The position numbers and the translations under genes are program-made. From NCBI RefSeq assembly GCF_044324875.1, contig NZ_CP172185.1: a stretch of 64,000 bases of DNA; one strand, written 5' to 3'. This DNA comes from Escherichia coli (lineage in GTDB: Bacteria > Pseudomonadota > Gammaproteobacteria > Enterobacterales > Enterobacteriaceae). The notes beneath the pieces are model-generated. The model searched no databases. It saw only the letters and a program-made list of their open reading frames with translations, and was not told the origin of the DNA. Shown here one piece after another: positions 18,084 through 20,942 of this stretch (position 1 is the stretch's first letter; the number at the start of each line of letters is the position of its first letter).

Positions 18084-19798
18084 TTATGGGAAACCTGAAT
18101 GAAACAGAAAAGTGGGAAGAAAATATCTATCAACTGGAGACATCAGATCCGGTTCTGGGTGGTGCAGACGGGATATCAAATCGAGCCCCCCGGCAACTGG
18201 CAAACAGGACGAAATGGCTGAAGAAGAAAACGGAGGAAGCCGCACAGTCACTGGCTGAACACGTACGTTCCCGTAACCACCCGGACGCGACACTGACAGC
18301 TAAGGGGTTCACCCAACTGAGCAGTGCCACCAACAGCACCTCTGAAACGCTGGCCGCCACACCAAAAGCGGTCAAGGCTGCATACGACCTGGCAGCCGGC
18401 AAGGCGCCTGCCAGCCACACTCACCCGTGGAGTCAGATAACGGGAGTGCCTGCGGCTTCACTGACGGCAAAAGGCACCGTACAACTGAGCAGCGCCACGG
18501 ACAGTCAATCAGAAACTGAGGCTGCCACGCCGAAGGCTGTGAAAATCGCGTATGATCTGGCCCGGGGAAAATACACAGCCCAGGATGCAACAACGACCCG
18601 TAAAGGGATCGTACAACTGAGCAGTGCCATCAACAGCACGTCTGAAACGCTGGCCGCCACACCGAAAGCGGTCAAGGCTGCATACGACCTGGCAGCCGGC
18701 AAGGCGCCTGCCAGCCACACTCACCCGTGGAGTCAGATAACGGGAGTGCCTGCGGCTTCACTGACGGCAAAAGGCACCGTACAACTGAGCAGCGCCACGG
18801 ACAGTCAATCAGAAACTGAGGCTGCCACGCCGAAGGCTGTGAAAATCGCGTATGATCTGGCCCGGGGAAAATACACAGCCCAGGATGCAACAACGACCCG
18901 TAAAGGGATCGTACAACTGAGCAGTGCCATCAACAGCACGTCTGAAACGCTGGCCGCCACACCGAAAGCGGTCAAGGCTGCATACGACCTGGCAGCCGGC
19001 AAGGCGCCTGCCAGCCACACTCACCCGTGGAGTCAGATAACGGGAGTGCCTGCGGCCTCGCTGACGGCAAAAGGCACCGTACAACTGAGCAGTGCCATCA
19101 ACAGCACGTCTGAAATACTGGCCGCCACACCGAAAGCGGTCAAGGCTGCATACGATCTGGCAAACGGAAAACAACCGGCAGATGCCACGCTCACTGCTCT
19201 GGCAGGACTTGCCACTGCAGCAGATCGGTTGCCTTATTTTACCGGAGCAGACCGCGCAGCGCTGGCAACCCTTACAGCTATTGGTCGCGCTATTATCGCT
19301 AAGGGCAGTATAAAAGATGTCCTCAATTACCTTGGTTTGGGGGAAGGCTCTGCATTGCCTGTTGGTGTACCGGTTCCATGGCCCACCGCCACACCGCCAG
19401 CAGGCTGGTTACAGTGCAACGGAGCTACGTTCACCAAAGAACAATATCCTGTTCTGGCCAGAGTCTACCCGACCCTCCGTCTTCCCGATTTGCGCGGTGA
19501 GTTTATCCGTGGATGGGACGGTGGTCGCAAGGTTGATACCGGGCGTGCGCTACTTTCATTTCAGGAAGGGACTATCGTATCCGGTTTTGATGATAATGAT
19601 ACCGGAGATATCAGTTCGCTCGGCTCTACACAATACGGATTTGGTGACGCTTTAACCTCTAATCAACTGGGGGTCATAAATGGCAAAAAGTGGATATTTG
19701 ATGCATCCTCTAAAGGTGCACAAAGATATGACTGGTGGGCTTATGTATCAGCTCGCCCCCGCAATATCGCATTTAACTATATCGTGAGGGCGGCGTGA
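18080..19798 (+). CDS. Tail fibre protein (constant part plus currently expressed variable C-terminus)
   Basis: 572 aa with repeated QLSSA..S.SET.AATPKAVK.AYDLA fibre motif; C-terminus lies inside the invertible segment. Confidence 0.85.
   Translation: MIMGNLNETEKWEENIYQLETSDPVLGGADGISNRAPRQLANRTKWLKKKTEEAAQSLAEHVRSRNHPDATLTAKGFTQLSSATNSTSETLAATPKAVKAAYDLAAGKAPASHTHPWSQITGVPAASLTAKGTVQLSSATDSQSETEAATPKAVKIAYDLARGKYTAQDATTTRKGIVQLSSAINSTSETLAATPKAVKAAYDLAAGKAPASHTHPWSQITGVPAASLTAKGTVQLSSATDSQSETEAATPKAVKIAYDLARGKYTAQDATTTRKGIVQLSSAINSTSETLAATPKAVKAAYDLAAGKAPASHTHPWSQITGVPAASLTAKGTVQLSSAINSTSEILAATPKAVKAAYDLANGKQPADATLTALAGLATAADRLPYFTGADRAALATLTAIGRAIIAKGSIKDVLNYLGLGEGSALPVGVPVPWPTATPPAGWLQCNGATFTKEQYPVLARVYPTLRLPDLRGEFIRGWDGGRKVDTGRALLSFQEGTIVSGFDDNDTGDISSLGSTQYGFGDALTSNQLGVINGKKWIFDASSKGAQRYDWWAYVSARPRNIAFNYIVRAA
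18296..19160 (+). repeat. Tandem repeat array, 300-bp unit, about 2.9 copies, in tail fibre gene
   Basis: 18341-18640, 18641-18940 and 18941-about 19080 are near-identical (1-2 mismatches). Confidence 0.9.
19328..19560 (+). repeat. Left inverted repeat of invertible fibre segment
   Basis: About 230 bp matching the reverse complement of about 20700-20942 at roughly 90 percent, with a near-perfect core 19358-19412. Confidence 0.8.
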
Positions 19799-19804
19799 TA
19801 CCGT

Positions 19805-20419
19805 TCAGCCGGCAAGCGCCAGTGGCGCTTCCGGCCAGCTGATTTCAGGTGCCTTGCTGATATCCAGTGCGTTCAGCTCGTCGATATAATCCAGCACGGC
19901 GTTCAGTTTTGCCGTTTCTTCTGGTTTCAGACTGCGACCTGCCCGCAGTTTGAGGTTGATGAGGTCGATGGACTTCATCGCCTGATCCACCCGTTCCTGG
20001 CGTTGCAGTCTGGCAACCTCCAGCTCTGCGGCTCGCTGCCGTTCAGTATCGGTTACCCACGCCTCACCGTTCCAGGTATCCCATGGCGTGGCCGGCTGTT
20101 TTGTGGTGGTGTCCGCCGGGTAATCACCCGGCTGGGTAATCTGAACGGGAGTACCGTTCTCCGTGCTGTATACCGTCTCGCCGCGGTGATCAGGCACATG
20201 TTCCCACCCGTTCAGCGTGGCAGTCCGGCAAACCACGTAACCCGAAATTGCCTCCGGCGGTGCATCGGCGCACGAATGTGCCGGAGTACCCACCCCAAGG
20301 GCGAGATACTCCACAGAGGATGAGGTGTATTCCCGGGTTTCCTCGTCATAGTGATATACAGTGATATCGCCCGCTACAGTGGCGATACCGTTTTCATCCA
20401 GAACTGCAGTGTTACTCAT
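19805..20419 (-). CDS. Tail fibre assembly chaperone (Tfa/gpG-like)
   Basis: 204 aa, TAATG stop-start overlap with the upstream minus-strand fibre cassette. Confidence 0.8.
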   Translation of the reverse strand: MSNTAVLDENGIATVAGDITVYHYDEETREYTSSSVEYLALGVGTPAHSCADAPPEAISGYVVCRTATLNGWEHVPDHRGETVYSTENGTPVQITQPGDYPADTTTKQPATPWDTWNGEAWVTDTERQRAAELEVARLQRQERVDQAMKSIDLINLKLRAGRSLKPEETAKLNAVLDYIDELNALDISKAPEISWPEAPLALAG

Positions 20420-20901
20420 TAAACTGCCCTCACAATGTAATTAAGTGCAATGCTACGGGGTCTGACAGTGATACCCTTCGCATACCCGCTTCTGATAGAG
20501 GTCAGAATAGTAGCCTGCATACCATTGTCTGACATTGCCACGACAGGATCGCTGAATGTTGTCCCGTCCGGCATTTTAAAGCTGCCCTCACGAAGGTCTG
20601 TAATGGAATCTTCATTGTTGAATCCCATGCCGACTATCCCCGAGGTTCCCGTAGTGTCCTGGTTATAATAATCCAGCATTGCTGTTCTTAACAGCGTTGC
20701 CCCTTGTGCGGACAGCAACTTACGTCCTGTATCAACTTTGCGCCCGTCGTCCCATCCACGGATAAACTCACCGCGCAAATCGGGAAGACGGAGGGTCGGG
20801 TAGGCTCTGGCCAGAACAGGATATTGTTCTTTTGTAAAGGCGCGCCCGTCGCACTTTAACCAGCCTGCTGGCGGTGTGGCGGTGGGCCACGGAACAGGCA
20901 C
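20419..20901 (-). CDS. Alternative tail-fibre C-terminal cassette (promoterless; would be fused to fibre after inversion)
   Basis: N-terminus PVPWPTATPPAGWL...RGEFIRGWD matches the fibre on the + strand; frame continues upstream with SALPVGV; ends NYIVRAV like the other cassette. Confidence 0.7.
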   Translation of the reverse strand: MPVPWPTATPPAGWLKCDGRAFTKEQYPVLARAYPTLRLPDLRGEFIRGWDDGRKVDTGRKLLSAQGATLLRTAMLDYYNQDTTGTSGIVGMGFNNEDSITDLREGSFKMPDGTTFSDPVVAMSDNGMQATILTSIRSGYAKGITVRPRSIALNYIVRAV

Positions 20902-20942
20902 ACCAACGGGTAGCGCCGAGCCTTCTCCTAAACCAACGTTTA
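20700..20942 (-). repeat. Right inverted repeat of invertible fibre segment
   Basis: Reverse complement matches 19328-19560. Confidence 0.8.

Follow-up and report, generated by a model that had tools for sequence, protein, structure and literature searches.

Within 64,000 nucleotides (nt) of Escherichia coli DNA (NCBI RefSeq assembly GCF_044324875.1, contig NZ_CP172185.1; this whole stretch is called the window and all coordinates are window positions), a prophage carries a tail-fibre switch with two alternative fibre tips and one assembly chaperone gene. The locus is a Din-family (Gin/Cin/Pin/Min) invertible tail-fibre segment, and every defining feature of such a segment that was open to test was found. 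A block of ~1.6 kb in the order [Sv> <tfa <Sv'] lies beside a serine invertase gene. The cassettes Sv and Sv' encode alternative ends for a constant fibre part, Sc, and only Sv', which is silent in the present orientation, is followed by the chaperone gene, tfa. Self-assembly of the chaperone-less tips, that is without a dedicated Tfa, is the preferred reading, although held only tentatively, and is placed ahead of a generic Tfa acting in trans; the two were not separable here. The parts of the switch, with lengths in amino acids (aa), are the following.

18086..19798, plus strand, fibre gene as now assembled: constant Sc (to 19333) plus Sv, 570 aa from the ATG at 18086
19320..19345, left 26-bp crossover site, TCCTCAATTACC-TT-GGTTTGGGGGAA, central dinucleotide 19332-19333
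19329..19557, left arm of the inverted repeat, coding for the collar N-part of Sv
19334..19798, plus strand, cassette Sv, now expressed, 154 aa: collar N-part, 63-aa insert and return strand RPRNIAFNYIVRAA
19805..20419, minus strand, tfa, the sole tail-fibre assembly chaperone gene, 204 aa: phrog_105, 5e-87; Pfam Caudo_TAP, PF02413, 4e-26, aa 79-199
20419..20934, minus strand, cassette Sv', silent here and promoterless, 171 aa from the crossover: collar N-part, 80-aa insert and RPRSIALNYIVRAV
20711..20939, right arm of the inverted repeat, coding for the collar N-part of Sv'
20923..20948, right 26-bp crossover site, reverse complement GAGAGATAAACG-TT-GGTTTAGGAGAA, central dinucleotide 20935-20936
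21003..21575, plus strand, serine DNA invertase of the Gin/Cin/Pin/Min (Din) family, 190 aa: phrog_125, 1e-94

The two arms are 229 nt long and 86% complementary, with 1153 nt between them. A first-pass annotation of the sequence had put the repeats at about 230 bp and roughly 90% identity. No other inverted repeat longer than 29 nt was detected in 17000-23500. The crossover sites are inverted with respect to each other, lie at the outer ends of the arms, share a central TT (AA on the opposite strand) and align with gixL and gixR of Mu and cixL of P7. The core pattern occurs in the prophage at these two places only, giving a two-site segment, in contrast to multiple-inversion arrays of the Min/p15B type, which have more than two sites and tandem promoterless cassettes. 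A third AAACCAACGTTT, at 50948, was rejected as a crossover site since it is chromosomal sequence and within chance expectation. Over at least 95% of its length, the invertase shares 76% identity with Mu Gin and 73% with P1 Cin. Invertase genes of this family carry a Fis-dependent recombinational enhancer in their 5' part; the stretch corresponding to the putative enhancer of P7 cin (nt 19-86) shows good conservation here, but it is coding sequence and the conservation is non-specific.

The segment acts as the host-range switch of the prophage: the Gin/Cin-family invertase recombines the two gix-like sites and flips the 1.6 kb block. The constant shaft is thus joined in frame to one of two tips, Sv, as at present, behind which no chaperone gene stands, or Sv', with tfa coupled behind it through TAATG. 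When 19334-20934 was flipped in silico, an uninterrupted in-frame open reading frame (ORF) of 589 aa was obtained (from the TTG start), with tfa directly downstream via TAATG.

The remainder of each arm, which is most of its 229 nt, is simply common coding sequence of the collar N-part, and the possibility was considered that the inverted repeat reflects mere coding homology between two collar domains in a fixed segment. This explanation has essentially no probability left and is already refuted, by the gix-like sites at the arm ends, by the intact Gin-family invertase beside them and by the occurrence of both orientations, together with all multi-cassette permutations, in sequenced genomes. 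In a survey of 5,426 complete E. coli genomes, the block was present as in the window in 201 and in the flipped form in 202. Several flipped matches (H46-H50) were 100% identical across the full 2,751-nt query, and near-isogenic pairs (MS1494/MS1737 and PKF4/PKF11) carried the block at the same coordinate and differed only in its orientation. Furthermore, PacBio reads from a single culture of strain EC958 gave both orientations in prophage Phi2 (Forde et al. 2014, PMC4134206), the crossover half-sites of which (TCCTCAATTACCTT / GAGAGATAAACGTT + GGTTT(A/G)GG(A/G)GAA; Table 3, PMC4134206) are identical to those of the window. The segment inverts, the long-read evidence coming from this sister strain and the orientations across genomes from the survey; the single fixed orientation that the first-pass annotation had allowed for is contradicted by both. 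Inversion of the element was already known, because the EC958 reads had shown both forms with identical half-sites.

EC958 Phi2 is the same element, with a 227-bp inverted repeat, a Phage_fibre_2 shaft and a Collar tip. It differs in having three cassettes in a 2067-bp segment, whereas the window has two in ~1.6 kb. The EC958 paper described the alleles generically, as mirror images that each come with a cognate 'minor tail fibre gene', and left the single tfa and the internal third site unremarked (PMC4134206). Judged on that paper, the p15B Min literature aside, the asymmetry between cassettes and chaperone appears not to have been analysed before. Beyond the first-pass annotation, the comparison added the earlier description of the element as invertible, a third chaperone-less cassette in sister alleles and the reading of the NYIVRA motif as a collar return strand.

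The product of tfa is assigned to the Tfa / Caudo_TAP assembly chaperones by its domain and its coupling to a fibre cassette, and it is 52-60% identical to the Tfas that follow collar tips in other phages. The stop codon of Sv' overlaps the tfa start (TAATG), and tfa has its own Shine-Dalgarno sequence, GAGGG, 7 nt before the ATG and within the VRA codons of Sv', as read from the sequence. Downstream of Sv there is no chaperone gene; its stop codon, TGA at 19796-98, lies 6 nt from the stop of tfa. Sv and tfa are convergent in every state, so the two can never be co-transcribed. A tblastn search with Tfa over the whole window matched only 19808-20419, and the plus-strand ORFs within the segment (20003-20323, 19317-19655 and 20450-20668) had no PHROG match. 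NCBIfam held no family for Tfa or for the cassettes. The ORFs and the tblastn search agree with the original description, in which a Gin-type segment offers two fibre C-termini, the silent one coupled to the sole tfa and the expressed one followed by no chaperone gene. The second, plus-strand chaperone that would contradict it was absent from both searches.

The sequence around the Sv stop, GCGTGATAC (19796-19807; TGATAC junction), resembles the TGATG/TAATG stop-start overlap between collar cassettes and Tfa in SKA5, 500465-1 and Sv', and may be a vestige of a lost downstream tfa start. When both strands of 19000-21750 were scanned for sigma-70 promoters, none was detected, and so none for the minus-strand tfa. 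Visual inspection of the minus strand showed an extended -10-like element, TGAGATAAT, at 20970-20962; it sits in the gap that separates the right crossover site from the start of the invertase gene, and it points into the segment. It fails the scan, overlaps the probable invertase promoter and is too weak to be taken as a promoter; it serves as a pointer to tfa transcription that might not depend on orientation.

The closest classical counterpart is the G segment of Mu with its invertase Gin. In both, the invertase gene lies just right of the segment and is transcribed away from it, the crossover sites are homologous, the constant 5' part of S is outside the segment with alternative 3' parts inside, and the host is a Mu-like transposable myovirus. 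However, Mu has the order Sv-U / U'-Sv', a chaperone for each tip, within 3 kb and between 34-bp repeats, whereas the window has one tfa, two tips of the collar class, 229-nt repeats and no com/mom after the invertase. The classical C segment of P1 also has two chaperones (U and U'). The P1/P7 segment, inverted by Cin, resembles the window in its invertase (72-73% identical) and in its cix crossover sites. The Mu G and P1 C rule of one dedicated Tfa (U, U') per tip does not hold in the window, where tfa is single. The first-pass annotation had cited Mu, P1 and e14 for a chaperone with each variant; the direct comparison, which covered Mu, bears this out (S-U / U'-S'). Two convergent tfa genes are present in Mu, SKA5, 500465-1, 500465-2 and Cartapus. 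The p15B-type Min arrays of P1-like phage-plasmids differ again, the window being a simple flip-flop and not shufflon-like.

Both tips are T4-gp37-like collar modules, and the variable insert is the distal receptor-binding part; both assignments are strongly supported. The fibre has six Phage_fiber_2 domains and a Collar domain (PF07484, aa 429-476) in Pfam, and PHROG tail-fibre families match too. Two separate stretches of T4 gp37 (2XGF) match: one aligns with the collar N-part, and the other is the extreme C-terminus of gp37, KNIAFNYIVRLA. 2XGF was also the best Foldseek match (E = 7e-6, prob 1.0). The T4 protein shares the collar N-part, the distal excursion and a C-terminal ...NIAFNYIVR.A strand back to the collar. 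It normally needs a separate Tfa-type chaperone, and bypass of that need by a change in the fibre is documented. In T4, however, the insert is a long iron-binding needle and there is no DNA inversion, while the window inserts measure 63-80 aa. Both cassettes end in RPR(N/S)IA(F/L)NYIVRA(A/V), and the almost invariant tail RPRNIAFNYIVRA is common to all cassettes, as is the collar. The RPRNIAxNYIVRA motif is best read as a strand that returns to the collar after the distal excursion, its pairing with the collar being suggested by homology. The unique parts comprise 79 and 96 aa (measured from the collar N-part to the RPR motif, they come to 63 and 80 aa), in keeping with the conserved NYIVRA ending and the difference over about 80-95 aa noted originally. 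In AlphaFold2 (AF2) monomer models, the collar and the last strand were confident, and the inserts had predicted local distance difference test (pLDDT) values <60 in both tips. The models are uninformative for the inserts and give no indication as to which tip needs folding help. The Sv' insert is nearly confined to this E. coli prophage family (14 database matches); Sv-type inserts occur across Escherichia, Salmonella, Enterobacter, Cedecea, Ewingella and Xenorhabdus.

According to the preferred reading, tfa would be hard-wired to Sv', and the chaperone-less cassettes (Sv, with Sv-b and Sv'' in sister prophages) would be functional tips that trimerise without a co-transcribed dedicated Tfa. 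The chain register of such trimers might be set by the long constant shaft, the pre-collar segment and host factors, by analogy with T4, where variant forms of gp37 dispense with gp38; one such form carries a coiled-coil extension (Qu et al. 2004, as cited in PMC3004832).

The one-chaperone layout recurs among relatives. In phage 503046, a member of this family, the chaperone-less slot is filled by a different allele (64% identity) that is intact and has exactly the same 3' junction. Many strains carry a third cassette, Sv'', in which the stop codon is directly followed by the next crossover site, and still have one tfa. These three-site sister alleles include L001, L017, L018 and pF374-2, and all four predicted permutations of the three-site version are present in genomes (L001, L006, L018 and L017); the Sc-Sv'' junction was found in 163 genomes. 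The fibre ORFs were intact in every state examined (415-594 aa), as were the three chaperone-less alleles in 8 of the 8 loci read. Within the prophage family Sv shows just 1-3 differences, which makes dN/dS uninformative there, and a three-lineage comparison was used instead. On the Sv branch it gave 21 synonymous and 3 nonsynonymous changes, a ratio of nonsynonymous to synonymous change per site (pN/pS) of ~0.2, the same as between chaperoned relatives.

The module is also mobile. It is present in ~7% of complete E. coli genomes, including sequence type 131 (ST131), and the same block is carried with 96-97% nucleotide identity by P1-like phage-plasmids (~94 kb). Plasmid pF374-2 (NZ_OY754373.1) and 13 other plasmids share the whole module of Sv, tfa, Sv', Sv'' and invertase. 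These matches indicate that Mu-like and P1-like phages, two unrelated temperate types, have recently exchanged a module that sets host range. The P1-like phage vB_EcoM-673R5 (ON470615.2; 5990-9000) has five collar cassettes, in tandem or inverted, with a crossover site before each, one tfa homolog and the same stop-then-site packing; its tfa and invertase ('Hin1/Hin2') appear frameshift-split, possibly through assembly errors.

In NZ_CM165899, NZ_CP080163, NZ_CP028483 and NZ_CP032201 (loci L001, L002, L017 and L018), the Prokaryotic Genome Annotation Pipeline (PGAP) breaks the fibre gene into pseudogene fragments flagged 'incomplete' and enters the silent cassettes as separate coding sequences named 'phage tail protein'. 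With the ORFs intact, these flags were rejected as a sign of decay; they are an annotation artefact of inversion and repeat-number variation.

The same data bear on the possibility that the Sv orientation is a tolerated dud. The Sv-linked tfa would have been lost, particles made in this orientation would have misfolded fibres or adsorb poorly, and full infectivity would be reached only with tfa in sense. This is improbable, although several observations are in its favour. Close relatives of the Sv tip have their own Tfa, no tfa is co-transcribed and no promoter was found for it when Sv is on, and the TGATAC junction resembles a degraded TGATG overlap. However, half of ~400 genomes have Sv in the on orientation, the three chaperone-less alleles are all intact in all eight loci, the pN/pS on the Sv branch is low, the module has spread between Mu-like and P1-like phages and over many insertion sites, and multi-cassette arrays gain chaperone-less cassettes and do not lose them. 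Conservation, the replacement of alleles, the spread of the module and the pN/pS value all speak against reading the loss of a tfa as functional decay, and we infer that the single-Tfa layout is a maintained, mobile design.

Several points weigh against self-assembly. In another Mu-like prophage, L011, the Sv insert recurs (90% identity, or 86% when the whole cassette is compared) with an overlapping Tfa of its own behind it. An Enterobacter P2-like prophage, L014, also pairs its tip with a Tfa of its own; the cassette there shares 80% identity with Sv, and its insert ~75% with the L011 insert. Because these relatives have a Tfa, the Sv tip would normally be chaperoned, and a tfa was therefore probably lost or never co-transferred; as a historical event, such a loss is likely from the sequence comparison. 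The first-pass annotation had left three choices, a chaperone-independent tip, a chaperone in trans or a lost gene, and these are narrowed to the extent that historical loss becomes likely and loss as functional decay does not. Tfa-type chaperones are, moreover, generally essential for fibres of this kind (P2 G, Mu U, lambda Tfa and T4 gp38). Chaperone-less inserts of 52-67 aa overlap in length with chaperoned ones of 61-63 aa, and insert size was consequently rejected as a predictor of chaperone need. The purifying-selection signal may in part be older than the loss of the second tfa, and the proposal of self-assembly itself draws on sequence and context, the AF2 monomer inserts being uninformative.

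The possibility was also considered that one generic Tfa serves all collar cassettes by recognising the invariant collar and return strand instead of the variable insert. Such a Tfa would also have to be made while its gene runs antisense to the late operon. Its transcript could start at a promoter carried along with Sv'-tfa or at a leftward promoter beside the invertase, and a second tfa copy could then have become redundant and been lost. This reading as a whole is possible, though somewhat less likely than self-assembly. The window Tfa is of the same class as the Tfas coupled to Sv-like tips (56-60% identical overall, 59-64% in the N-domain), and across five loci N-domain identity does not track that of the coupled insert (rho 0.14; inserts 15-22% vs N-domains 59-67%), which makes a generic Tfa biochemically plausible. 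The identity of RPRNIAFNYIVRA and the collar across all cassettes, a Shine-Dalgarno sequence for tfa that is independent of coupling and the -10-like TGAGATAAT pointing into the segment are in agreement with it, and lambda Tfa can reportedly replace T4 gp38. However, neither strand of 19000-21750 has a sigma-70 consensus promoter, the -10-like element being the one already discounted, and convergent late transcription would oppose such a transcript. If all tips needed Tfa, its gene would be expected outside the invertible DNA. Furthermore, the Tfa N-domain is stated to bind the distal, variable part of the fibre (PMC9608196).

Tail-fibre tips decide the host, and host-range engineering is usually limited by having to move a matching chaperone with each tip. 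Collar tips of ~150 aa that trimerise without a dedicated Tfa, if the tentatively preferred self-assembly is correct, would be minimal plug-in receptor-binding cassettes, stackable from stop codon to crossover site and mobile between Mu-like and P1-like phages. A single insert-agnostic Tfa expressed whichever way its DNA points is likewise compatible with the evidence. Either self-folding cassettes or one Tfa for unrelated inserts would offer a natural template for compact, swappable receptor-binding cassettes and would refine the rule of one tip, one Tfa derived from Mu and P1. As a switch, the locus is unremarkable and had been described before; the layout is a variation on a known system.

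Two further features lie between the convergent genes and at the end of the prophage.

19803..19840, GC-rich hairpin where the 3' ends of convergent Sv and tfa meet: -30.8 kcal/mol, z = -4.3 on the minus strand and z = -1.8 on the plus strand
21576..21650, plus strand, prophage right end, ending ...GCGCGGCGCA (...GGCGCA), with a repeated GCATTTATCGC motif; chromosomal lhr resumes at 21651

Lacking a U tract, the hairpin was rejected as an intrinsic terminator. It may serve to end transcripts from both directions, or to stabilise whichever operon end is in use. The right end follows directly after the invertase, without com/mom, and the repeated GCATTTATCGC motif may represent transposase-binding repeats. 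The switch resides in a myovirus prophage whose head and baseplate genes are of the Mu type. Matches in other strains stop exactly at 21650 beside other host genes (yebS, yhfW, rstB and the aroA region, in place of lhr in the window). Transposable Mu-like behaviour is indicated because the same right end adjoins different host genes in different strains; with its many unrelated insertion sites and an end in ...CA, the element is a Mu-like transposable prophage, of which the left end, the transposase genes and the 5-bp target duplication lie beyond the window.

The prophage interrupts lhr, the 3' part of which forms an ORF at 21730-22575, followed by grxD, mepH and sodB. The fibre ORF also opens at a TTG at 18080, giving a range of 570-572 aa. 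The fibre shaft contains, at 18314-19097 (also 18280-19179), about three tandem 300-nt (100-aa) repeats with 83-98% identity. Their copy number varies among strains, with fibres of 415, 470, 570 and 594 aa carrying the same tips.

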